The position numbers were made by a program, and so were the translations under genes. DNA of 32,000 nt from Desulforamulus reducens MI-1 (GTDB taxonomy: Bacteria; Bacillota; Desulfotomaculia; Desulfotomaculales; Desulfotomaculaceae), in assembly GCF_000016165.1 (NCBI RefSeq), contig NC_009253.1:2893484-2925483 (forward strand), written 5' to 3'. Within the stretch, counting starts at the first letter, position 1. Each line of letters starts with the position of its first letter. Of the stretch, positions 3,619 through 13,830 are shown one piece after another. The notes below the pieces were generated by a model, which ran no database searches, was not told the DNA's origin, and worked only from the letters and a program-made list of their open reading frames with translations.

Positions 3619-4344
3619 CTATGACCATGGCTCCACCCTCAACCGCCGAGCAAATCGCCGCAATATCTGCGTAAACCGTTCTCCAAAAAATAGGTAAAAC
3701 ATGCTATTGCCTATTGCATGCATGGCATCAATGGAAAAGCTGGCTGCATAAGTAGCCAAAAAGGTTTGCCACGTGTGGGGATATACAAACCCCAGCCAAT
3801 GCCAAAGATTCATAATCCAACCATATAGGAAACCCCAACTAAAAAGAAACAAAACCATTGCCCAACGCTGTATATGAGGAAATACTTTGGACAGAAAACT
3901 GCCTGAGGCTCCAGCCAACCCCCAGGCCAGCATCTGCCAGGGAGTCCATGGACCCTGTCCCAGGAAGAAGTTGGAGACCAATGCTGCAGAAGCACCCACC
4001 ATGAATCCGGCCCGTAGACCGAAAACATACCCGCTTAAAACCGTCAAAAAGGTGACAGGCTGAATGCCAGGCAAAAAAGAAAAGGGGACCCTGCTGGCAG
4101 CAGCAAGGGCTCCCAAGGCGGCAATTATAGCCAGTTCCCGGGAGGAAGCCTGCTTTTGTTCAAAGGCTATAAACAACAAGGCCAAGATCAAAAAGGCCAC
4201 ACCCAGACCCAGCAATCCCCAGTTTTGCCCTCCAGCTACCTGGTTACTGAAGCTACCAGCGGTTATCCATAAAATCGCTGCCACAGCCAGCCCTAGTGCC
4301 CATCTCCCCCATTTTTTACGTCTAAACAGTTTTCCTTCTCCCAC
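3619..4344 (-). CDS. ECF-transporter substrate-capture (S) component, putative corrinoid-specific; unusually long (241 aa)
   Basis: All-hydrophobic multi-TM protein. GTG start with AGGGGGA 6 nt upstream, overlapping the ATPase gene by 23 nt. It is the last gene of the riboswitch-controlled operon, directly after ecfT and ecfAA'. Substrate assignment rests on context only. Confidence 0.6.
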   Translation of the reverse strand: MGEGKLFRRKKWGRWALGLAVAAILWITAGSFSNQVAGGQNWGLLGLGVAFLILALLFIAFEQKQASSRELAIIAALGALAAASRVPFSFLPGIQPVTFLTVLSGYVFGLRAGFMVGASAALVSNFFLGQGPWTPWQMLAWGLAGASGSFLSKVFPHIQRWAMVLFLFSWGFLYGWIMNLWHWLGFVYPHTWQTFLATYAASFSIDAMHAIGNSMFYLFFGERFTQILRRFARRLRVEPWS

Positions 4345-6085
4345 TTATAATCCCCCTGCCTTTACTCCGCAACAATTCCCACCGGGCCAACGCTTCTTCT
4401 ACCGTAAGAAGGGGATTGGTAAATCCCTGGCTCAACCTGCCCAATTGGGTGGTATAAAAAATTCCATTGCCCATTACATCCAAGGTTGACCCCTTACGGA
4501 CAAGCCTGCCCCGATGAAGCACAGCCACATGGGAAGCAGTCCGGGCTGCAAATTCTATATCATGGGTAATCATGATAACGGCAGCACCGCCTTGAGTGTA
4601 TTCTCGAAGTCGCATGGTCAACTCTTCTTTCAAGCGCACATCCATGCCCCGGGTCGGTTCGTCCAGCAATAAAAGATCCGGACGGGTAACCAGTACCGAT
4701 GCAAGGGCAACCCTCTGGCGCTGACCACCGCTTAAGTCCCGGGGATGACAATGTCGGTACTCGTCTAAGTGAAAACCTTGCAGCAATTGCTCCACAATGC
4801 CATCGTCTGGCAATCCATATTGTTTCAAGCTAAAAGCAATTTCTTCTTGTACCGTATCCTGAAGCAAGTAGTCATTGGGGTTCTGGGCCAGATAGGCCAG
4901 ACGCCCCGGTCTCCCTACTAGGCCATGTTTCTTGTGGCCTTTATCAACCACAGTAATACAGCCCCGACCCGGTTTCAATAACCCGGCGATCAGTTTGAGT
5001 AAGGTGGATTTCCCGGCCCCATTGGCACCCAAGATCACGAGCAATTCCCCCGGAAAAATTTTCAGACTCAAATCCTTAACGGCCTCATGACCGTCAGGAT
5101 AAGCATACCACAGCCGGTCCAAGGACACCGACGGTTCTCGCCTTGGTTCCTGATCAGTCCTATGTACAGTTTCTGACAGGATGGGACCACTTATTTTCCT
5201 CTGTTCTGTAGTCCGAGAAAGACCCCGGCGAACCCCTTCCTGCCCAGAGAGCTCTTTTTGTCTATCCATGAACTGGCCCATGAACTTTCGCCCCGCCGCA
5301 ATGGTGATGGGAAGTGGCTTTATCCCTATTCTGGCAAAAAAGGTGGCCACTGGCGGCAAAAAGGGAACTCCTCGTTCCACGGCCCACTCCGCCATCCTGT
5401 CCGGTGGATCATTGAAGCGCACCTGTCCTTTTTCCATGTATAACACCCGATCGGCTAGATGAAAACACCTCTCCAAACGCTGTTCTACCAAAATGATGGT
5501 CATGCCCATCTCTTCATTCAACCGCCGAAGAAAAGCAAGTATTTCTTCGGCTGCCACCGGATCTAACTGGGAGGTGGGCTCATCCAAAATCAAAACCCTT
5601 GGGCGCATGGCCAAAACCGCACCCAAAACCAAGCGCTGTTTCTCCCCACCAGAGAGTTGTTGCACTGCTTTATGAGTTAAAGAGGATAAGTTTAAAAAAT
5701 CCATGACCTCTGCCATGCGCCAGCCCATTTCTTCTTCGGGCATACCCAGGTTTTCCAGACCAAAGGCCAGTTCAGCCTCCACATTGGTCATCACCAGTTG
5801 TTTTTCCGGGTCTTGAAAGACAATACCCACTTCCCTGGCCATTTGGCCTGGCTCCATTTGAGGAATGGATTGATTGCGGTAAGTTAATTGACCGCCAAAA
5901 CGTCCTCCATAAAATCGGGGGATTAAACCGGCCAATGCCCGGGCTAGAGAAGATTTCCCAGACCCCGATCCACCCAAAACCAGTACGAACTCACCTTCCT
6001 CTATGTTCAAATTGATTTGATCCAGAGCCGGTTGCTGGGAATCCGGGTAACAATACATCAAATTTTTGATCGTAAAGATGGCCAT
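4322..6085 (-). CDS. ecfA: ECF-transporter ATPase, fused tandem A-A' (two ABC domains in one polypeptide)
   Basis: Two full ABC cassettes. Walker A: GGSGSGKSS and GANGAGKST. Signature: LSGGEKQRL and LSGGQRQRV. Walker B: LILDEPTS and LLLDEPTR. I place the start at ATG 6085 (MAIFTIKNLMYCYPD, GGGGGTGG SD 6 nt upstream) rather than the ORF-track 6220, whose first 45 codons overlap ecfT. Confidence 0.9.
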   Translation of the reverse strand: MAIFTIKNLMYCYPDSQQPALDQINLNIEEGEFVLVLGGSGSGKSSLARALAGLIPRFYGGRFGGQLTYRNQSIPQMEPGQMAREVGIVFQDPEKQLVMTNVEAELAFGLENLGMPEEEMGWRMAEVMDFLNLSSLTHKAVQQLSGGEKQRLVLGAVLAMRPRVLILDEPTSQLDPVAAEEILAFLRRLNEEMGMTIILVEQRLERCFHLADRVLYMEKGQVRFNDPPDRMAEWAVERGVPFLPPVATFFARIGIKPLPITIAAGRKFMGQFMDRQKELSGQEGVRRGLSRTTEQRKISGPILSETVHRTDQEPRREPSVSLDRLWYAYPDGHEAVKDLSLKIFPGELLVILGANGAGKSTLLKLIAGLLKPGRGCITVVDKGHKKHGLVGRPGRLAYLAQNPNDYLLQDTVQEEIAFSLKQYGLPDDGIVEQLLQGFHLDEYRHCHPRDLSGGQRQRVALASVLVTRPDLLLLDEPTRGMDVRLKEELTMRLREYTQGGAAVIMITHDIEFAARTASHVAVLHRGRLVRKGSTLDVMGNGIFYTTQLGRLSQGFTNPLLTVEEALARWELLRSKGRGIISGRRKTV

Positions 6086-6987
6086 CGGTTCCACCCCCAA
6101 TTTAAGAGCATTGGTACAGAAAGTCCTGAAAACAAGGCTATGAATATCCCCAGCCCCTTTTTGTCCATCAGCAGGGGATCCAGTGCCGGATAAAAAGTAA
6201 AAAGCAAGCTGCCTTCCCAAATTCCATAGAGGAACACCGCCAAGACGATAAATATACCGGTCAGGCAGATACTATCCCGGGGCCGCCAAAGATCCCGGCG
6301 GTAGCGGGTGCGGGGACCACTGTTAAACCCTCGGGCCTCCATGGCTTCCGCCGTCTCCAATGCGTCTTCCAAAGACGAATACAATAGAGTTTCCACCAGA
6401 CCACCATACTTGCCTAGCCGTTCCCGTCGGGATCCCTGTTCAAATTGGACACCCCTCAGTCGCTGGATTTCCTGGATACTCTTCAGCCTTTGGGCCACGG
6501 TGGGAAACAAACGGGTGGCCAAAGATAGCACCAAGGCGGAGCGAAAAAGAGTCCCTGAAAACAGAGAGAGAATCTGATCGGGATGAACCATACGACTAAA
6601 GAGAAAAAATAAACTAAAGGCATTTAACAATTTTAAACTCATGGCAGCTCCATAACAGATGGCCTCCAAAGTTATGAACATGTGTCCCAACAAGGGTAGT
6701 TTTGGCCCCCACCAGAGGATAGTTTCCCCTGCTCTGACAAAAAGCGGGTTGACAAACAGCACAATGACACTCATCATCAGGCCAAGCCGCATATAATTAT
6801 TCCAGTCTTCGACGCTTCTAAGCCCCTGGGCCATGGTGGCTGACAAACAGAGCGTGCCTACCAAAAATACGGGATGGTCCAGGAGCATGATGAGAATAAG
6901 CATGCAAAGGAAATAACTCACTGCAACTCCCGGATGAAAGCGGGTTAACAGCGGCGTTAAAGTAAAGGTGTTTTCCCCATTCCCCAT
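6058..6987 (-). CDS. ecfT: ECF-transporter transmembrane (T) component, CbiQ/EcfT family
   Basis: Multi-TM protein with the characteristic C-terminal coupling motif (LEDALETAEAMEARGF). Start placed at ATG 6987 (MGNGENTF..., GAGGA SD, 10 nt after the upstream stop) instead of 7053. Overlaps the ATPase gene by 28 nt. Confidence 0.85.
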   Translation of the reverse strand: MGNGENTFTLTPLLTRFHPGVAVSYFLCMLILIMLLDHPVFLVGTLCLSATMAQGLRSVEDWNNYMRLGLMMSVIVLFVNPLFVRAGETILWWGPKLPLLGHMFITLEAICYGAAMSLKLLNAFSLFFLFSRMVHPDQILSLFSGTLFRSALVLSLATRLFPTVAQRLKSIQEIQRLRGVQFEQGSRRERLGKYGGLVETLLYSSLEDALETAEAMEARGFNSGPRTRYRRDLWRPRDSICLTGIFIVLAVFLYGIWEGSLLFTFYPALDPLLMDKKGLGIFIALFSGLSVPMLLNWGWNRWPSLRSKI

Positions 6988-6997
6988 ATGTTTTTCC

Positions 6998-8422
6998 TCA
7001 AGGACGGATAATAACCGCCTGTTCCCTTTCATCCCAAGATACTCTATAGCCAAAACCCTCGGCTACGAAACGAGCCGGGAGAAAAATCCTTCCCTGTTGC
7101 AGAACGGGTTCCACATCCATCTTCCTTTTCTGTCCGTTGACTAGGTTATATTTTTCTCCTAGCACCAATTGCACCTGCTGTTGTTCATGTTCTAGAGAAA
7201 CCCTTTGCGTCTGTTGGTCCCATCGGATACCGTTGTCCCGAATACCCAAGGCCTTGGCCATGTATCTCACCGGAACAAAGATACGTCCTTCTTGTACAAG
7301 GGGGGCCACGTCCATCGGCTCCTTTAGGGTGCTTCCTTGTCTGCTCACCCCATAGGTTGCTTCACCGGGCTGAAAGCGTACTTCATCAACCAAAGCAAGG
7401 ATTGACGGGGAGAGACTTTCCTGGTTGTTACGTTCTTGAGACAATCCCCTAAAAAATGGTTGGGAAGTTGCTAGGCTGTATAGCCCAAGGGCTCCCTGGG
7501 CTGTGGCCAGGGTATTGGCCCCGCCTCCTTGGAGATGGGCAAAGGCACCATCGGGGAGTTGAAAGGATTGTAACGCCTCCAGCAGTCCGCCTTTTTTTTG
7601 CCAGGGTTTATCTGCAGGATCGGCTCCTACCGCCAACAATCCGCTGATAACCATAAAGGTGCTTTCGGGATTCTCCACCCCCCAGGATTGGAAGCCGCCT
7701 GATTTCTGTTGTGCCCCTGCCAGATAGGCCAGCGCCTTATCCACCACGGGACTGCCGACCCTTTCTCCCAATGCGCCCAAAGCTATCAGGGCCATGCCAG
7801 TGGAATCCACATCAGCGGTCTCTCGATTCTGAACATCCCAGTTAAAGGAACCATCGGCATGCTGTTGAGCAATTAAATACCCAAGGGCCTTTTTGCGGCT
7901 TTCTGCCGCCCAGGGTTGACCATGGGCAGCCAGAAGAACTGAAACCCACATGTGGGTATTGTTAAGTCGGCTACCGCCCTCCACCAAATTGTCAGGAAAC
8001 TTGCCACTGGGCAGTTGGGATTGACACAACCTCTGAAACAGATCATCCCCCTCAAAATTACCGGGATCCTTTCCGGCGGCCAATAGGAGGAAAACCAAAT
8101 TTACATAATCATTGGTTTCCCCAGACTCACGGGTATAGGCTGCCTGTTCTGCAATGGCTTTATGGATGGATGTCTCTTCCATGGCTCGGCCGCTCAACTT
8201 TAAGGCCATGTACCCCCAATGTGGCAGGCTCCCCTGCCTTTTTTCCAGAGCAGACAAGTAGGCAGTGGCCTTAGAGAATGACTCCTGGGCCTGCGTATTT
8301 CCAATAGCCAAGGCTGGCACCATGGCATTCACTAACATAATAAACGTGGTCAATATAGCAATATATCTGGCTTTTAGAGATTTTCTAACATAATGCATCC
8401 TATGATTGGTATGTTCATTCAA
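6998..8422 (-). CDS. Secreted protein: N-terminal prenyltransferase/terpene-cyclase-like alpha/alpha-toroid repeats plus C-terminal copper-amine-oxidase-N-terminal-like 'stalk' domain
   Basis: TTG start with AAGGAGG 9 nt upstream. Signal-like N-terminus (KARYIAILTTFIMLVNAMVPALAIG). Repeated Q-x-x-DG-x-F/W motifs: QLPSGKFPDN, QQHADGSFNWD, QQKSGGFQSWG, FQLPDGAFAH. The C-terminus has duplicated 'EGRIFVPVRYMAKALG / QGRIFLPARFVAEGFG' motifs typical of the Cu_amine_oxidN1 fold. Confidence 0.7.
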   Translation of the reverse strand: MNEHTNHRMHYVRKSLKARYIAILTTFIMLVNAMVPALAIGNTQAQESFSKATAYLSALEKRQGSLPHWGYMALKLSGRAMEETSIHKAIAEQAAYTRESGETNDYVNLVFLLLAAGKDPGNFEGDDLFQRLCQSQLPSGKFPDNLVEGGSRLNNTHMWVSVLLAAHGQPWAAESRKKALGYLIAQQHADGSFNWDVQNRETADVDSTGMALIALGALGERVGSPVVDKALAYLAGAQQKSGGFQSWGVENPESTFMVISGLLAVGADPADKPWQKKGGLLEALQSFQLPDGAFAHLQGGGANTLATAQGALGLYSLATSQPFFRGLSQERNNQESLSPSILALVDEVRFQPGEATYGVSRQGSTLKEPMDVAPLVQEGRIFVPVRYMAKALGIRDNGIRWDQQTQRVSLEHEQQQVQLVLGEKYNLVNGQKRKMDVEPVLQQGRIFLPARFVAEGFGYRVSWDEREQAVIIRP

Positions 8423-8462
8423 AATAACGGTCCTCCTTTCCCTCTTAGAGCTAACTTTAACT

Positions 8463-9167
8463 TCAATCAGTTTTTTTCTGAACCAATTCTTCCCACTGGG
8501 GTCCGTTGGAGTTGATATCGGTACTGTACCACCAGATCACCCGATCCCCTGGCTCCACCTTTTGTTCTGTTGCCGCCACCATAGGTACTTGACCGTTTAC
8601 CTTATACATCCAGCCGTTCATTCCTTTGTTATGCTGACCGGCAATACTGCTTACAAAGCTACTAGTCTGCATGCCATAGCGTAACCCGGTGGCATGGAGC
8701 ACTCCCATGGCCGTCATGCCCCACGGGTTATCCTGGTTGATTTCCAAATCCTGAGGTCCAAAAAGCACCTCCCCCTGTTGACCAACCACGGCGATACCAA
8801 TGAGAAGATTTTTCACAGGGGTTGTCGTGGCTGGTGGCGTAGGGGAAGTACCCCCTTGAACTGGGGATGGATCCTGTTTGTCAATATTATTTTTTTTATC
8901 TAGAATCTTTTTTTGCCCATCAGAAGTTACCTTTGACTCCTGTGACTCCTGCTTTTGCTTTTCTTTCGGTTGTGGGTCCGTTACTTTATCACCCGCGGGA
9001 GATGCCAAAGGGGGTTGACTCATTTGTTCCTTTTGAACCGGGGGCGGGTGACCAGTGCCACCCGCTTGACGATTATCCTGTTGACTATAGATGATTGAAC
9101 CGAACAAAACAGATACCACAACCGCCAGGATTACCCAGTGCCAACCAAATAGACCTGCTTTTTTCAC
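8463..9167 (-). CDS. Membrane-anchored DUF4430 (transcobalamin-like C-terminal domain) protein
   Basis: GTG start with AGGTGGA SD. It has an N-terminal TM anchor (WHWVILAVVVSVLFGSIIY), a P/Q/K/T-rich linker, and a C-terminal ~100-aa domain clearly paralogous to residues ~647-745 of the 1174-aa protein (shared WGMTAM, GW MY.VNG, PMV, GD.VIWWYS.DIN). Confidence 0.7.
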   Translation of the reverse strand: MKKAGLFGWHWVILAVVVSVLFGSIIYSQQDNRQAGGTGHPPPVQKEQMSQPPLASPAGDKVTDPQPKEKQKQESQESKVTSDGQKKILDKKNNIDKQDPSPVQGGTSPTPPATTTPVKNLLIGIAVVGQQGEVLFGPQDLEINQDNPWGMTAMGVLHATGLRYGMQTSSFVSSIAGQHNKGMNGWMYKVNGQVPMVAATEQKVEPGDRVIWWYSTDINSNGPQWEELVQKKTD

Positions 9168-9178
9168 CCTTTATCCAC

Positions 9179-12100
9179 CTACTTCATAGATACTAAACGA
9201 TGGAGTAGCACAGCGACTTCTGCCCGGGTAGCCGGGTTTTTGGGTCGAAAGGTATTATCTTCATATCCCTTGATTACGCCCTGGTCCAACATGGTCGCAA
9301 CACTTTCGGAAGCCCAGGGTCCAATGGTCTCCCGGTCGTTAAAGGTCACCGGTTTTTCCCCTCCGGTCAATTGGAAAGCCCTCACCAGCATCACCGCCAT
9401 CTCTTCCCGGGTCACCGGATGATGCGGGTCAAAGGTACCATCCGGATACCCGCTGACAATCTTAGCCTTAGCAGCAGCGCTTACCGGAGAGGCAAACCAG
9501 TCGGTGGGAGAAATATCTGAGAAGGGGTACATATCACTGGCAGAGAGATTTTTGATGCGAGCCAATAAGGTAGCCAGTTCGGCCCGGGTAATGGTACGGC
9601 CCGGTTCAAAACGCTCCTCAGATACGCCGCTAATAATCCCCTGACCAGCCAACGATTCAATGGCGTCCCGGGCCCAGTCAAAGCCGGTTAAATCAGCAAA
9701 AGTCTTTCTGGCTGGTTGAGGATCCATGGTTGGCGTAGTTGTTTTTCCTGTCACCATATAGCGGGAGAAGTGGGAAATACGAGCCATGATAAGGCTTCTC
9801 TCTGCATCAAAAACAGCAGGCAATGCCACCCAGGTTTTTTCTTGGGGATTGTACCAAGAAAAAACTAGGTTTTCTGGCTGAACATTTTCGGGCAAAGCCA
9901 CTTGAATGGCCACCGTTACCGGTTCGCTAAAAGTCAACCCCTCAGGTCCCATGTGGTAAACCGGAGAAACAGCTCGGAATCCTTCGGGAAGTTTCTCCCA
10001 GCCTTGGATACTGCTGTTGATGTCGGATGGTGACATAGGCAATGGTGTTTCTTCACGGACGGTAATTTGCGCACTAGCACCAAGGGCATTGGCCGGGATC
10101 ACCAGAGCCATTTCTTCTCCTGCATCGGAGACAACCGCCCCTTTATTGGCTTCCACCTGTTGCTCAATCTCTACTCGATTAGCTTGCAGCTTTTTTTGCC
10201 GTTCTTGGGCTTCTTCCCCCTTCATCAGTTTATCAGGGGCAACCACCGCCACCGCCTGCTTTACATCACTTAGCGACCCCAAAACAGAAGTGCTGCCTGC
10301 AATGCCAAGTACCTTCTGAATATCCTCCAAGGTTTTTGCAACACTGCTTGTAGGTTGTAAAGAGGACGGGAGTAAGTCCACTTGTTCTTGCACAGATGAG
10401 GGGATGTTCGAATTAACCGCCGGCTGATTGGACCAACTTCCATCAGTTGCAGTTTCCCAGGTAGGGCCGGGATTATTGATGTCCAAGCTGTACCACCAAA
10501 TAACCTTATCCCCATCCTTAACAGGCTGATCCTTAGCCATAACCATGGGGGTTCGTCCGTTAACCATATACATCCAACCCGTCATACCCTGGTTGGCTTC
10601 TCCTTCAATGGCCGTGACGAAACCGTCTCGGTCACTGTAACTAAGCCCGGTCTGGTGTAAAGCTTCCATAGCAGTCATGCCCCACTGGCCAGTTTTTTCT
10701 ACAGTGACATAGGAGGGGCCAAACAGCTTGCTACCTGTTTTTCCAACCACTATCACACCTACACTGGCAGTATCTACCCCAGGTGTGTTACCGCCGTCCC
10801 CTGGGGTAGAACCGCCGGAGGAGGGAGTAAAACCTAACGTGTGAAAGGCATTTAGGGCTATGGTGGCGCCAAAAACATTTTTGCTGTCACCAAAGCTACC
10901 ATCATTGTTTAGGGATTTTTCCAGCAGCCAGTCCACGGGGCTTTTGCCCTCACCACTTTTTAATTCCCGGGGATCCTGGTTCAAACGCTTCATGGTTAGG
11001 ATCATCTCGGAAGTGTCTACCACCGCATCGTCCCAGCCAGTTTGATAGCTGCCATCATTCCTTTGCTTTTCTTTAAGATAGTCCACCCCTTTTTTGATAC
11101 TGGCAGCAACATCTGCATCGGTGGCATAGCCCTTTAGGTAGGTTAAGGATCGAACCGCCTGGGAAGTGGCCATAAAGTCGGGATAATCTGGGTATGTACT
11201 ATCCCATGCTCCCATGTTGTCCCCATCACTAATCTGCCGATCGAGCAGGAAGATCCTGGCATCGTCCTTAATGGCATCTATCTGTCCCTCTGTCCCCAGG
11301 GCCAGATACGCCCATACATCACCAAAGAGGTTGTTGGAAAAGCCCTGAGACGAATGCTGATCATGTAATAAAAACGTCAGCTTCTCCACACGCTCGGCCT
11401 CTTCAAATCCCTTCATGGCCAATAGGTTTAAACCTACGGACTTAGCCTGGGGAACTTTGGCCCAAAGAGCATTTTCACCTGCGTACTGGTCATAGGTAAG
11501 TCCTTGTTTTTTTAAGGCAATTAGCAACTCGGCTGCCGCGGTACTGCTATCTCCGCTGACAGGTAGGGCTGCCGTATCCTTGTCTTGTACACTCTTTAGG
11601 TAGGTTAAGGCGTCATCGATGGCTTCCCCTGCCACATCGGAATCAAATTTCGATAAAGCAGTCACCGCCTGGGCGGTCAACTCCGAATCCTTGGGTGTAT
11701 ATGAAGTACCATAGGCTTTGCCTGCCGGAGTGCCCCACTCATCATGGTCTCTTTGGAATTCATTAAGGTAGGTCAGGGCATTAACCTGATCCACACCGGT
11801 TAGTTGGTTGGTTTCCCCCAAGGCTCTTAACACAGCCACCTGGTCAAAGACGCCAAAATCTCCGCCTGAACCGAAATAAACCTGCCCTTCTTCTGTAACA
11901 GAAGCTTTGCTACGTATAGCATCGCCCAGTTGACTCACCTTTTCATGGGTTGGTTCAAGGGCATATAGAGCACCTAAATGTTTAGCCAATTCAGTGGCTG
12001 ATTTATCGTTGGCATTTTCTGCAGCATATACGGCTTCGGCTACGGCTTTGTCTTGTAAGGAAATTCCGTTTTTTACCCAGCCATCCTGGGTTAAGTCTTC

Positions 12101-12703
12101 TCCGGCAGTTTTTAATGCTACAACTGTTCGAGCATCAAAGGCGGCAAAACCGCTGTTACTATAATCCTCTGAAAGGGGATAACGGCTTTTCAAAAAAGCA
12201 ACGGCCTTGGTGATAGCCTGTTCCACTCTTTCTTTTAAGGCTCCGTCCAAATCATCTTTGATCAGAGCCAGGGCTTCTAAGGCTATTTTGGTTCCATATT
12301 CGTTAGCATAAGGCCCAAAGCTACCATCCGGATTCTCGTGAACCAGAAGGTAAGTAATCAAGCTGTTTTTTTCCAATCCCAGTTCGTGTCCGATGGTGAT
12401 GGCGTCCGTAGCCTTAACCAAGTCTTGTTTGGCCGACGGGCAATATGGTTTTGTCCACTTGTCAGAACCCAAATCTTCCCCAGCTAGGGTTAAAACATAA
12501 GCCGTATAGCCGTCCAAACTTTCCCCGGCCATATATTTTTCATGTATGAACTCTACGGCTTTGCCAGCTAATTCTCCTCCACTGGCTGTTGTAGGTTCGT
12601 TGGCAAACGCAGAAAAAGGAAGTAGCAGATTGGTTAAAAAACATACCATGAACAACAACACGATTCTCTTGCCAATCGATGAATTAAAAAAGAGGTTTCC
12701 CAT
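9179..12703 (-). CDS. Large S-layer-homology (SLH) anchored surface protein: signal peptide, extended alpha/alpha-toroid repeat region, DUF4430 domain, unknown domain, three C-terminal SLH modules
   Basis: 1174-aa ORF, ATG with AAGGAG SD. Signal peptide ends ...LLPFSAFANE. Toroid-type repeats: HENPDGSFGPY, RQISDGDNMGAWDS, KQRNDGSYQTGWDD, LNNDGSFGDS. It also carries a G/S/T/P linker, a DUF4430 domain and three SLH repeats. Confidence 0.8.
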   Translation of the reverse strand: MGNLFFNSSIGKRIVLLFMVCFLTNLLLPFSAFANEPTTASGGELAGKAVEFIHEKYMAGESLDGYTAYVLTLAGEDLGSDKWTKPYCPSAKQDLVKATDAITIGHELGLEKNSLITYLLVHENPDGSFGPYANEYGTKIALEALALIKDDLDGALKERVEQAITKAVAFLKSRYPLSEDYSNSGFAAFDARTVVALKTAGEDLTQDGWVKNGISLQDKAVAEAVYAAENANDKSATELAKHLGALYALEPTHEKVSQLGDAIRSKASVTEEGQVYFGSGGDFGVFDQVAVLRALGETNQLTGVDQVNALTYLNEFQRDHDEWGTPAGKAYGTSYTPKDSELTAQAVTALSKFDSDVAGEAIDDALTYLKSVQDKDTAALPVSGDSSTAAAELLIALKKQGLTYDQYAGENALWAKVPQAKSVGLNLLAMKGFEEAERVEKLTFLLHDQHSSQGFSNNLFGDVWAYLALGTEGQIDAIKDDARIFLLDRQISDGDNMGAWDSTYPDYPDFMATSQAVRSLTYLKGYATDADVAASIKKGVDYLKEKQRNDGSYQTGWDDAVVDTSEMILTMKRLNQDPRELKSGEGKSPVDWLLEKSLNNDGSFGDSKNVFGATIALNAFHTLGFTPSSGGSTPGDGGNTPGVDTASVGVIVVGKTGSKLFGPSYVTVEKTGQWGMTAMEALHQTGLSYSDRDGFVTAIEGEANQGMTGWMYMVNGRTPMVMAKDQPVKDGDKVIWWYSLDINNPGPTWETATDGSWSNQPAVNSNIPSSVQEQVDLLPSSLQPTSSVAKTLEDIQKVLGIAGSTSVLGSLSDVKQAVAVVAPDKLMKGEEAQERQKKLQANRVEIEQQVEANKGAVVSDAGEEMALVIPANALGASAQITVREETPLPMSPSDINSSIQGWEKLPEGFRAVSPVYHMGPEGLTFSEPVTVAIQVALPENVQPENLVFSWYNPQEKTWVALPAVFDAERSLIMARISHFSRYMVTGKTTTPTMDPQPARKTFADLTGFDWARDAIESLAGQGIISGVSEERFEPGRTITRAELATLLARIKNLSASDMYPFSDISPTDWFASPVSAAAKAKIVSGYPDGTFDPHHPVTREEMAVMLVRAFQLTGGEKPVTFNDRETIGPWASESVATMLDQGVIKGYEDNTFRPKNPATRAEVAVLLHRLVSMK
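9194..9703 (-). other. Three tandem SLH cell-wall-binding modules (domain-level annotation inside the 1174-aa CDS)
   Basis: Residues ~1001-1170: FADLTGFDWARDAIESLAGQGIISG...TRAELATLLARI; FSDISPTDWFASPVSAAAKAKIVSGYPDGTFDPHHPVTREEMAVMLVRAF; FNDRETIGPWASESVATMLDQGVIKGYEDNTFRPKNPATRAEVAVLLHRL. Confidence 0.85.
10469..10765 (-). other. DUF4430 / transcobalamin-like C-terminal domain inside the 1174-aa CDS
   Basis: Residues ~647-745: SVGVIVVGKTGSKLFGPSYVTVEKTGQWGMTAMEALHQTGLSYSDRDGFVTAIEGEANQGMTGWMYMVNGRTPMVMAKDQPVKDGDKVIWWYSLDIN. It aligns by eye along its whole length with the C-terminal domain of the 234-aa protein. Confidence 0.7.
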
Positions 12704-12718
12704 TACACATTTCTCCTT

Positions 12719-13444
12719 CTAGTTATCTGATATTGCTTGACAATATTTTTGAATAGCTCCGGTTAGAGTTCTTTGAACGCCGTTGGCCAATAGACAGCCG
12801 GTTACAGTAGTGGGGCCGGCATAATCCGCCAAAGGTCCTTTGGGATTTCCCGCCACAATGACAGCATCGGTACCCGTACCAGTGGCCGGAAAACCCGACT
12901 GAAGACATCGAACCCCCATCTCTCCCAGAGTTCTGGTCTTGGCTTCAGTAATGGTTTGCACCGCATTAACCAATCCTCCCGGTGTCAACGAATGGGACAA
13001 AAAGGCCATGATGTTGATGGTTCCCGGACAGGGCTTGGTTTGAGAAAAACAAACCGTTAGGCCTGCCGCACAAGCATTGCTCAAGCCAGCGGTGGTGATG
13101 ACCACAGCCTCCTGGGTTCCACAAGCCAGTTGAGCCCATACGCCATGACTAACCCAGGCGGCTGTCATTAGAGCAGAGCAAGCGTCTATTTGACAAAAAG
13201 GCAGGGTTGCCTCTAACCATTTTGTCATTTCCTGGTTTGGGTTGCAGGCATCATAATTTTTGGACACCTGTCGATTTAGAAAAAGAAGTTTAGTACCAAT
13301 ACCCCCACCCAAGACGCCGGAGCCAATGGAAAGCCAAGGTTCATTAGCCTCTACCAGAATACACTTTGAAGTTACCCGGCCTCGCAATCCAGACAGCAAA
13401 TGGATTGGCGTGTCGGGCTTAGGCGAAAACATATTCATCTTCAC
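12719..13444 (-). CDS. cbiZ: Adenosylcobinamide amidohydrolase (corrinoid salvage/remodelling)
   Basis: 241-aa ORF, GTG start with GGAGGG 6 nt upstream. Motifs I associate with the CbiZ family: LSIGSGVLGGG, MTAA, GTINIM, LVNAVQTITEAKT, ATGTGTDAVIVAG. It is the first gene downstream of the cobalamin riboswitch. Confidence 0.8.
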   Translation of the reverse strand: MKMNMFSPKPDTPIHLLSGLRGRVTSKCILVEANEPWLSIGSGVLGGGIGTKLLFLNRQVSKNYDACNPNQEMTKWLEATLPFCQIDACSALMTAAWVSHGVWAQLACGTQEAVVITTAGLSNACAAGLTVCFSQTKPCPGTINIMAFLSHSLTPGGLVNAVQTITEAKTRTLGEMGVRCLQSGFPATGTGTDAVIVAGNPKGPLADYAGPTTVTGCLLANGVQRTLTGAIQKYCQAISDN

Positions 13445-13561: not shown

Positions 13562-13628
13562 ATTGAAGTAAGCCACTGGCTTAGTGCCTCTCACCTTCCC
13601 ATCGACCGTGGGTATATTCTGGTGAAAC

Positions 13629-13805
13629 AAACAGGTAGGTCTCCTGACTTAGAATCATCAAAACTTCACGTCTTCCCAGTTGATTACCTCATCGGCTTAA
13701 ACCAGTGACACAGGTGTGAAGATTTTCATCCATACAGTGGCGGGACCGCGCCGGCTTTGCACCGGTCTTCCCTTTTAACGCTTCTTAATAATAAGCGGCC
13801 TGTTT
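13629..13805 (-). promoter_or_regulatory. Cobalamin (B12) riboswitch aptamer
   Basis: Minus-strand RNA reads ...AAAAGGGAAGACCGGTGCAAAGCCGGCGCGGTCCCGCCACTGTATGG... (GCCACTG core at 13741..13735) and ...AAGTCAGGAGACCTACC (B12 box, 13650..13634). A closing helix pairs AAACAGG (13805..13799) with CCTGTTT (13635..13629). It matches the conserved cobalamin-riboswitch core from memory. Confidence 0.9.
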
Positions 13806-13830
13806 CTTCTGTATAAAATTGTATAAATTG

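Follow-up and report, generated by a model that had tools for sequence, protein, structure and literature searches.

The 234- and 474-residue products of two adjacent genes of Desulforamulus reducens MI-1 are best explained as accessory extracytoplasmic corrinoid-handling proteins of a riboswitch-repressed, CbrT-type ECF importer, with the membrane-tethered DUF4430 domain of the shorter protein as the core acceptor and the toroid of the longer one as an optional cap acting in trans, a reading to which we give about an even chance of being correct. Computation, centered on a 32,000-nucleotide stretch of the D. reducens genome (hereafter, the window), provided the operon and its riboswitch, the identity and fold of the domains, the conserved side-by-side placement of the two genes, the natural fusions of their modules and the finding that the toroid gene is dispensable. 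The original prediction had been of a two-piece binder that assembles in trans from these two proteins. Membership of a riboswitch regulon, the transcobalamin (TC)/intrinsic factor (IF) beta fold of the 234-aa protein, the adjacency and the fusions all speak for such a binder, but the pairing proved not to be obligate and the toroid did not prove to be TC-alpha-like.

Both ORFs were found at the positions given in Table 1, inside a single minus-strand operon that runs from the cobalamin riboswitch through the genes for CbiZ, the 1174-aa SLH protein, the 234-aa protein, the 474-aa protein, EcfT and EcfAA' to the CbrT-like S component. Riboswitches also lie upstream of related cassettes at nine of nine diverse loci, and the assignment of the pair to a cobalamin regulon is supported. 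A scan of the operon for promoters and terminators returned counts at the level of shuffled sequence. The start assigned to EcfT is supported by the length of its homologs (309 aa) and by the position of its ATG, 10 nt past the stop codon of the 474-aa toroid gene. The sole PDB match of the S component was 6fnp chain A (E 3.7e-11), which we take to be ECF-CbrT of Lactobacillus delbrueckii; with the CbiQ match of EcfT and the double ABC_tran match of EcfAA' alongside, the operon has the CbrT-like S component, EcfT and EcfA/A' of an importer of this type. The L. delbrueckii importer was reportedly characterized without extracytoplasmic binding proteins, and to such an importer the D. reducens operon adds three extracytoplasmic proteins. 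CbiD and CobS are also present in the D. reducens genome.

Table 1. Features of the D. reducens operon, in the order of transcription (positions are those of the window).
Feature	Position	Strand	Basis
Cobalamin riboswitch, heads operon	13617..13818	(-)	Rfam RF00174, 113.5 bits, E 5.7e-28
CbiZ (adenosylcobinamide amidohydrolase), first cistron	12719..13444	(-)	Pfam PF01955, E 9.8e-51
1174-aa SLH-anchored protein, fused counterpart of the split pair	9179..12703	(-)	Pfam SLH, DUF4430, SQHop_cyclase_C
234-aa membrane-tethered DUF4430 protein, whole gene	8463..9167	(-)	ORF; orthologs in 55/60 complete cassettes
N-terminal transmembrane signal anchor, residues 4-27	9087..9158	(-)	Kyte-Doolittle 19-residue mean 2.08; KK on N side
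Low-complexity P/Q/K/T tether, residues 28-118	8814..9086	(-)	Composition
DUF4430/SLBB domain, transcobalamin-beta-like, residues 119-229	8481..8813	(-)	Pfam, AF2 and Foldseek
474-aa secreted toroid-stalk protein, whole gene	6998..8422	(-)	ORF; at least 45 orthologs at 40-51% identity
Signal peptide region, residues 1-41	8300..8422	(-)	Basic stretch, then hydrophobic stretch ending ALA
Alpha/alpha toroid, 12 helices, residues 45-335	7418..8290	(-)	AF2 pLDDT >90
Cu_amine_oxidN1 "stalk" domain, residues 345-473	7004..7390	(-)	Pfam PF07833, E 8.2e-33; beta-rich in model
EcfT (CbiQ family), 309 aa from probable ATG start at 6987	6058..6987	(-)	Pfam CbiQ
Fused EcfA-A' ATPase	4322..6220	(-)	Two ABC_tran domains, E 2.4e-60
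CbrT-like ECF S component	3619..4344	(-)	Pfam ECF_trnsprt

The 234-aa gene starts with a GTG codon located 11 nt past the upstream stop, with GGTGGA ahead of it. The only hydrophobic segment of its product spans residues 4-27; we interpret it as an N-in signal anchor because two lysines lie on its N-terminal side, and it is followed by a tether of ~90 residues that is 15.6% proline, 14.4% glutamine, 12.2% lysine and 8.9% threonine. A transmembrane segment and a low-complexity tether are present in 72 of the 75 members of the small DUF4430 family, the tether having a median length of 98.5 residues (interquartile range 85-114). The Pfam family DUF4430 (PF14478) matched residues 150-215 of the 234-aa protein with 62.4 bits, relative to a cut-off of 23.8. 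The AF2 model of the domain had a pLDDT of 90.4, and its top 19 Foldseek matches were all TC, TC-beta, haptocorrin, IF or the bacterial DUF4430 structure 3u7z, with a sharp drop thereafter; query-normalized TM-scores against the top matches were 0.54-0.65. The model therefore supports assignment of the TC/IF beta-domain fold to this domain, as a prediction. When anchor and tether were left in the DUF4430 profile, a PDB search gave spurious matches to ATP synthase b only.

The DUF4430 domains of the 234-aa and 1174-aa proteins are the only two in the genome and, judged from their sequences (49% identity, E 3e-38), are true paralogs, so that the original description of the 234-aa protein as a transmembrane anchor, a P/Q/K/T linker and a DUF4430 domain paralogous to that of the 1174-aa protein was accurate. 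Small and large copies fell into separate clusters in a domain tree, as long-lived separate lineages; the tree was weakly resolved, with 14 of 41 branches well supported, and was used solely for this small/large clustering.

The 474-aa gene follows after a gap of 40 nt and starts with a TTG codon 8 nt past a GGAGGA sequence; the methionine at residue 9 is a possible alternative start. As had been claimed, its product has toroid repeats (Pfam SQHop_cyclase_C at 41.9 bits and Prenyltrans at 30.6 bits, both above cut-off) and no DUF4430 domain by Pfam. The Foldseek matches of the toroid were prenyltransferase beta subunits and class II terpene cyclases, and its profile matched squalene-hopene cyclase (SHC) with an E-value of 6.4e-36. 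Neither TC nor IF was among the PDB profile-search matches or the Foldseek top 50 of this toroid, PDB sequence searches with the 234-, 474- and 1174-aa proteins and their family profiles also returned no TC or IF match, and Cobalamin_bind (PF01122), the TC alpha family, had no match at E-values up to 10 in any of the three toroids of the window. The conserved residues of the toroid (N155/H157/W159, D204/D206/T208, W247/N251/E253 and H296) cluster in every other helix, at its N-terminal end, and would share one face if the helices are arranged as is usual in alpha/alpha toroids. The histidines H157 and H296 are nearly invariant and are candidates for axial ligation. The stalk domain is presumed to be an envelope anchor; toroid relatives have SLH, a transmembrane segment or nothing in its place.

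The 1174-aa protein, which has orthologs in nearly all cassettes, is made up of two toroid regions, one DUF4430 domain and three SLH repeats, and the window as a whole has three toroid regions vs. two DUF4430 domains. Sequence similarity between the 474-aa toroid and the toroids of the 1174-aa protein is marginal (E 0.008 and 0.043). Consequently, the idea that the same two modules occur both fused and split holds for the DUF4430 domains as paralogs, and for the toroids as a shared fold class and not as close paralogy.

Wherever the toroid-stalk gene was found in named genomes of other species it lay directly downstream of the small DUF4430 gene (25/25), and they adjoined in 24 or more of the 30 genomes surveyed in the class, the remainder being unlisted or split by contig ends. 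Conversely, 25 of 60 complete cassettes have the small DUF4430 gene without any toroid-only gene, several whole genomes are without any toroid of the 474-aa type, and the presence of the toroid-stalk gene on the EcfAA' tree entails at least six, and up to 12, changes (losses or gains). Even close relatives differ in this respect, as with the cassettes of Neomoorella carbonis or N. stamsii compared to that of Moorella thermoacetica DSM 21394. We consider an obligate two-piece binder to be ruled out by these absences and by the number of gains and losses. The co-occurrence that was expected of the pair is thus one-sided: it extends to the riboswitch and to the toroid-stalk gene, which keeps to the side of the small DUF4430 gene, but DUF4430 is found without the toroid, and the reverse never. 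This asymmetry mirrors the behavior of the human fragments, of which TC-beta alone retains cobalamin (Cbl) and TC-alpha does not (PMC5599065).

In ~86 of the 156 closest toroid representatives, DUF4430 is in the same chain as the toroid, and in 55 of these 86 fusions the toroid is C-terminal to DUF4430, which is the same order as that of the genes. The protein P0055 has the two joined via a transmembrane hairpin and is encoded beside ECF genes, and in P0063 and P0100 an ECF S component is fused to a toroid of the 474-aa type. A rule of one toroid per DUF4430 per cassette was rejected: the toroid:DUF4430 count is 3:2 for the window, many cassettes have 2:2, and at least 14 have 1:2. Also rejected was the idea that the toroid-only gene compensates for a large protein with a single toroid, there being no anticorrelation among cassettes.

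We propose that the 234-aa protein is the core of the system, its TC-beta-like domain being tied to the outside of the membrane through the N-terminal anchor and the flexible tether. This domain most likely binds corrinoid alone and would ferry it between the 1174-aa protein, which is anchored in the wall, and the S component. The 474-aa protein would be an optional partner, a secreted alpha/alpha toroid kept in the envelope by its stalk domain, that probably closes in trans over the ligand-loaded DUF4430 domain, as TC-alpha does over TC-beta with cobalamin only, and this closure may make binding tighter or more selective before the importer takes over the ligand. We infer the corrinoid binding, the ligand-dependent assembly and the order of transfer in this scheme. 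A more elaborate form of it, which we put forward tentatively, is a ligand-gated two-piece extracytoplasmic binder throughout a large clostridial ECF group, in which a beta-grasp domain on the ~100-residue tether would shuttle corrinoid across the wall zone and the free toroid, besides clamping it in trans, would dock on the S component, producing a directional relay from S-layer to membrane. Docking of the toroid on the S component is hinted at by the EcfS-toroid fusions. Besides the cassettes and genomes without the toroid and the lability of its gene, two observations count against the proposal as a whole: the 1174-aa protein already provides toroids in cis, and the 474-aa toroid has no detectable likeness to TC-alpha, its nearest relatives being terpene cyclases and prenyltransferases.

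It is feasible, although we are doubtful of it, that the two proteins are independent stations in the envelope and form no heterodimer, with DUF4430 binding corrinoid alone and the toroid-stalk protein serving separately, either for another corrinoid or precursor or in docking to the S component. The cassettes with a small DUF4430 gene and no toroid-only gene and the evolutionary lability of the toroid gene on the EcfAA' tree would fit such independence, as would the variable anchor of the toroid (stalk, SLH, transmembrane or none), the variable place of its gene (ahead of the gene for the large protein, behind that for the small one, or between those for EcfAA' and EcfS), the existence of EcfS-toroid fusions without DUF4430 and the long-lived separation of the small and large DUF4430 paralogs. 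It is harder to reconcile with the strict adjacency of the toroid-stalk gene to the small DUF4430 gene, with the very frequent occurrence of toroid and DUF4430 in one chain, and with the precedent of ligand-dependent alpha/beta assembly in TC and IF. We think it improbable that the in-trans partner of the small DUF4430 domain is instead the surplus toroid of the 1174-aa protein, leaving the 474-aa protein as a spare or competing cap. Such a partner is available in the window, where the large protein has two toroid regions and a single DUF4430 domain, almost every cassette has both a large and a small DUF4430 protein, and the 2:2 count in many cassettes without a toroid-only gene reflects a two-toroid large protein; but at least 14 cassettes without that gene have a large protein with one detected toroid, and possession of a second toroid by the large protein shows no anticorrelation with presence of the toroid-stalk gene.

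The relatives of the toroid raise the question of whether it is an enzyme, class II terpene-cyclase-like or six-hairpin hydrolase-like, acting on the envelope or on ligand-bound substrate, and not a cap. Its SHC profile match and the terpene cyclases and prenyltransferases that are its top structural matches would be expected of such an enzyme, and the invariant D204-V-D206-S-T208 aligns with DVDDT of the squalene-hopene cyclase chain, presumably the catalytic DxDD motif. However, the third aspartate of the motif is replaced by serine (DVDST), the motif repeats as a structural element elsewhere in the cyclase chain (PDLDTT), the signal peptide would take the protein away from isoprenoid diphosphate substrates, and the genomic context is exclusively that of B12 uptake, and we regard an enzymatic role as very unlikely. 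Least credible of all is that the ligand is heme or another tetrapyrrole, as has been proposed for a split alpha-like/beta-like pair beside an ECF transporter in Latilactobacillus sakei (lsa1836-1840; bioRxiv 10.1101/864751), given the cobalamin riboswitch here and in all nine relatives, the CbiZ gene in the operon and the CbrT-like S component.

The concept of such a binder is already in print, for bacteria since 2007 (Burroughs, Balaji, Iyer, and Aravind) and for L. sakei Lsa1839/Lsa1840 since 2019. In L. sakei, a tetrapyrrole-clamping heterodimer of Lsa1839 and Lsa1840 that passes its ligand to the S component of the ECF transporter Lsa1836-1838 has been modeled (bioRxiv 10.1101/864751). 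Compared by its published description, that system has, like ours, neighboring genes for a DUF4430/TC-beta-like protein and an alpha/alpha toroid, both exported, within a single unit that also encodes ECF T, fused AA' and S. The two differ in that the ligand claimed for L. sakei is heme, whereas riboswitch, CbiZ and S component point to corrinoids in D. reducens; in that export signals only are described for Lsa1839 and Lsa1840, whereas D. reducens has a membrane anchor and long tether on the beta protein and a stalk domain on the toroid; in the third, fused SLH protein of D. reducens; and in the reported HHpred match of Lsa1840 to the TC alpha domain, where the 474-aa toroid matched only terpene cyclases and prenyltransferases.

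The clade of bacterial TC-like SLBB proteins delineated in 2007 is predicted to consist of surface proteins fused to or associated with toroids, whose operons also include CbiO/CbiQ genes and, in many cases, the gene for a second, paralogous SLBB protein, with B12 scavenging as their role, and a Desulfotomaculum protein is cited as an example (PMC1796856). The D. reducens operon agrees with this description in having a transmembrane-anchored SLBB protein, CbiQ and ABC genes downstream and an adjacent toroid gene. A toroid-only partner acting in trans, a membrane tether and dispensability of the toroid are not described in the available part of that paper, which states that carriers of the clade are usually without B12 synthesis; D. 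reducens, in contrast, has CbiD and CobS.

Animal TC, IF and haptocorrin share with the D. reducens proteins the beta fold, the Pfam family DUF4430 and the two-module logic of alpha/alpha toroid plus beta-grasp domain. The cited reassociation of IF fragments around cobalamin is a real precedent, as the IF halves reassemble as IF30.Cbl.IF20 (PMC6257451), and TC-alpha and TC-beta assemble with Cbl only (PMC5599065). The animal carriers, however, have alpha and beta in one polypeptide, compared to two separate ORFs in D. reducens; their alpha domain is PF01122, to which the D. reducens toroid has no match, as it has none to TC in the Foldseek top 50; and they feed an endocytosis receptor, whereas the D. 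reducens proteins are envelope-anchored and feed an ECF importer. The 474-aa toroid resembles those of class II terpene cyclases and prenyltransferases in sequence and fold, and departs from the class II terpene cyclases in having no intact DxDD and in having a signal peptide.

Extracellular capture of scarce corrinoids by Gram-positive bacteria has been little described, and in the literature we came across no assay of B12 binding by a bacterial transcobalamin-like protein. The ectodomains encoded here, a DUF4430 domain of 115 residues and a toroid of 290 residues, are small and separable and could be expressed and assayed in the same manner as human TC-alpha and TC-beta. The comparison predicts that the tethered beta domain would be the constant core, binding alone, and the toroid an optional, ligand-dependent cap. 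To our knowledge, ECF importers are generally described as operating without substrate-binding proteins. In the more elaborate form of our proposal, the large clostridial group would depart from this pattern. If the prediction of a constant core and an optional cap is true, a class of extracytoplasmic binding partners would be added to the ECF vitamin importers, and the two-module logic of the animal B12 carriers would also be at work in bacterial uptake.

Gene calling and domain searches identified a compact minus-strand operon in the window, in which the genes of the 234-aa DUF4430 protein and the 474-aa toroid-stalk protein are neighbors. The intergenic spacing is 11 nt ahead of the 234-aa gene and 40 nt ahead of the 474-aa gene, both genes have a Shine-Dalgarno-like sequence, and a consensus scan of the operon found no internal promoter or terminator signals above shuffle level. 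The longest ORF for EcfT begins with a TTG at 7053, within the toroid gene (window 6985-7053). Its start is most likely the ATG at 6987, 10 nt past the toroid gene stop, giving a product of 309 aa, because the homologs have 309 aa and GAGGA lies upstream of this ATG.

Features of the uptake operon, in order of transcription (window positions)
Feature	Position	Strand	Remarks
Cobalamin riboswitch	13617-13818	-	113.5 bits; heads operon
CbiZ	12719-13444	-	Next after riboswitch
1174-aa SLH protein	9179-12703	-	Toroid and DUF4430 domains
234-aa ORF	8463-9167	-	DUF4430; after 1174-aa gene
474-aa ORF	6998-8422	-	Toroid-stalk; after 234-aa gene
EcfT/CbiQ, then fused EcfA-A′ ATPase, then ECF S component		-	Operon end; domain search

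The only PDB match of the S component was 6fnp chain A (E 3.7e-11), which we take to be the structure of the B12-specific ECF-CbrT. Since genes for CobS and CbiD lie close to the uptake operon (G000:C1:2931322-2932011 and 2940435-2941199 on the host contig, 6-16 kb past the window end), Desulforamulus reducens MI-1 probably makes cobamides itself; the uptake system would therefore supplement rather than replace corrinoid synthesis, consistent with the presence of CbiZ in the operon. The host genome has seven cobalamin riboswitches, and one was also found upstream of the related ECF cassette in 9/9 diverse loci tested, sometimes in tandem (two or three aptamers at L033:4240-5227, L054:5085-5851, L099:1448-3519, and L091:1775-2494). 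Downstream of the complete cassette of another locus, a separate cobalamin riboswitch immediately precedes the gene for a 632-aa toroid-DUF4430 protein without SLH repeats (L065:14143-16354). Besides the S component closing the cassette, several loci have a second S-component-like gene (~190-225 aa) that adjoins the small DUF4430 gene (L038:9626-10246, L043:9626, L058:9684, L069:6611, L064:3806, and L092:4048); in the first four it separates the latter gene from that of the large SLH protein.

The 234-aa protein has the architecture originally described for it: its only hydrophobic segment lies at the N terminus and is preceded by KK, and a 90-residue linker rich in P, Q, K, and T connects this segment to the DUF4430 domain. 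That this domain is paralogous to that of the 1174-aa protein was also borne out (49% identity, E 3e-38), these being the only two DUF4430 domains in the host genome. The AlphaFold2 model of the domain, built from 28 family sequences, had a pLDDT of 90.4, and its best 19 Foldseek matches in the PDB were to transcobalamin (TC) and the isolated TC beta domain (5no0, 5np4), haptocorrin (4kki), intrinsic factor (IF; 2pmv, 3kq4), and 3u7z, a bacterial DUF4430 structure; past the 19th match the E-value jumped and ubiquitin-like folds followed. In Pfam, TCN proteins likewise have their C-terminal region assigned to DUF4430 (PMC4350170). The TM segment and low-complexity tether are kept in 72 of 75 small DUF4430 proteins (median tether 98.5 residues). 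The small and large copies form separate clusters (2 label changes vs. ~15 expected from shuffling) and are old paralogs rather than recent duplicates.

The 474-aa protein, as originally described, is of the toroid type and has no DUF4430 domain by domain search: a signal peptide is followed by a toroid matching SQHop_cyclase_C and Prenyltrans and by a C-terminal Cu_amine_oxidN1 "stalk." Its AlphaFold2 model (49 sequences, pLDDT 91.5) comprises 12 helices (residues 68-335) and then the beta-rich stalk domain. The best structural matches of the toroid by Foldseek were prenyltransferase beta subunits and class II terpene cyclases (target-normalized TM-score ≤0.66), with no transcobalamin or intrinsic factor among the 50 matches listed. 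In a PDB profile search the family profile matched squalene-hopene cyclase (E 6.4e-36) and gave no TC match, and Pfam Cobalamin_bind, at E up to 10, matched neither this toroid nor either toroid of the 1174-aa protein. From these structure, profile, and Pfam comparisons, the DUF4430 half is a genuine relative of TC-beta, whereas the toroid has the fold class alone in common with TC-alpha. The claim that the same two modules recur in split form holds for DUF4430 but less so for the toroid, whose similarity to the 1174-aa toroids is marginal (E 0.008). The N-terminal ends of alternate helices usually form the ligand-binding face of alpha/alpha toroids, and in the model conserved residues at such ends (N155/H157/W159, D204/D206/T208, W247/N251/E253, and H296) would lie on this presumed face. 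The invariant D-V-D-S-T (residues 204-208, window 7799-7813) aligns with DVDDT of squalene-hopene cyclase, presumably its catalytic motif, with Ser replacing the third Asp; a similar motif, PDLDTT, is repeated elsewhere in the cyclase chain.

Among 162 genomes of the same class, 96 carry DUF4430, usually as exactly two copies separated by ~2 kb, of which one belongs to a protein of 900-1400 aa and the other to a protein of 220-300 aa; 474-aa-type toroids are present in 64. Of 30 class genomes with a clear ortholog, at least 24 have the toroid gene downstream of the small DUF4430 gene at a distance of no more than 0.5 kb, the rest having contig breaks or falling outside the matches listed. A survey of named genomes (one per species, annotated with purpose-built profiles) gave 78 loci with 60 complete cassettes. 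The layout of the window (small DUF4430, toroid-stalk, EcfT) was found in 19 of the 60; in 10 others a toroid-SLH gene instead preceded that of the large protein or had some other place in the locus, and such a gene lay between EcfAA′ and EcfS in 5 and after EcfS in 1. Co-occurrence of the two genes, originally proposed as a check, held in one direction: the toroid-stalk gene, partial loci included, immediately followed a small DUF4430 gene in 25/25 cases, but 25/60 complete cassettes had the large and small DUF4430 proteins and no toroid-only gene, with 3.8 kb or more of the upstream region in view for 19 of these. Several whole genomes had no toroid of the 474-aa type at E < 1e-6. On the EcfAA′ tree of 59 cassettes, toroid-stalk presence takes 12 changes, at least six forced by well-supported branches; for instance, Moorella thermoacetica DSM 21394 is without the gene, which Neomoorella carbonis and N. 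stamsii possess. In the surveyed cassettes the toroid-stalk gene was never found without the tethered DUF4430 gene, whereas the latter often occurs without a toroid-stalk gene, and we conclude from adjacency, layouts, and tree that the dependence is one-way. A different type of cassette has a "small" DUF4430 protein of 390-410 aa with additional, unassigned sequence (L026:5463-6623, L027:6528-7721, and L028:8785-9960), and a toroid-only gene without stalk (325-404 aa) follows the S component or directly this protein.

With an E-value limit of 0.001, 5328 representatives were found to be related to the toroid. Among the best 156, ~86 have at least one DUF4430 in the same chain, most commonly in the order toroid, DUF4430, toroid, SLH, and 45 have a single toroid and no DUF4430 (19 bare, 17 with SLH, 9 with stalk). 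In 55 of the 86 fusions the toroid most like that of the 474-aa protein is C-terminal to DUF4430, the order of the two window genes. A metagenomic protein of 600 aa (P0055, L008:1400-3202), encoded directly upstream of EcfT, EcfAA′, and the S component, has a signal peptide, toroid, S/T-rich linker, two TM helices, and DUF4430; the sole example of this architecture seen, it is in effect both window proteins fused via a membrane hairpin. Two further proteins, P0063 (L006:2026-4011) and P0100, join an ECF S component and a 474-aa-type toroid in one chain, which has a TM helix at its C terminus in one case and SLH repeats in the other; these fusions hint that the toroid acts directly at the S component. 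Also seen were giant surface proteins (P0129, P0091, and P0152; 2000-3400 aa), mostly SLH-anchored, with up to ~10 DUF4430 repeats or at least six toroid matches.

The precedent of IF fragments reassembling around cobalamin is sound, as IF30 and IF20 form IF30.Cbl.IF20 (PMC6257451). Human TC-alpha and TC-beta, expressed separately, co-eluted only with cyanocobalamin; TC-beta lost bound cobalamin only after extensive washing, and TC-alpha came out cobalamin-free (PMC5599065). The genomic asymmetry of the DUF4430 and toroid genes mirrors this biochemical asymmetry. By that parallel, the tethered DUF4430 protein would be a constant, autonomous corrinoid acceptor near the importer, and the toroid-stalk protein an optional cap assembling on the ligand-loaded beta domain, with the SLH-anchored large protein placed further out in the wall. 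Ligand binding, assembly, and order of transfer are all inferred, and we regard the trans-cap model as having about an even chance of being correct. Its main rival, that the two proteins act independently, seems to us rather unlikely.

A capping toroid on a tethered DUF4430 protein would belong to a kind already known and predicted. Burroughs et al. (2007; PMC1796856) predicted TC-like SLBB proteins at the surface of bacteria, with a role in B12 scavenging, described their fusion to or association with alpha/alpha toroids and their CbiO/CbiQ operons, and noted that a second SLBB paralog is often in the operon, with a Desulfotomaculum protein as example. In L. sakei, the adjacent Lsa1839 (beta-like) and Lsa1840 (alpha-like) were modeled as forming a heterodimer that supplies an ECF transporter, the claimed ligand being heme (bioRxiv 10.1101/864751). 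To these the present analysis adds that the DUF4430 and toroid genes are asymmetric, that the toroid gene was lost or gained repeatedly, that the tether is conserved, that EcfS-toroid fusions exist, and that the 474-aa toroid is closer to terpene cyclases than to TC-alpha.
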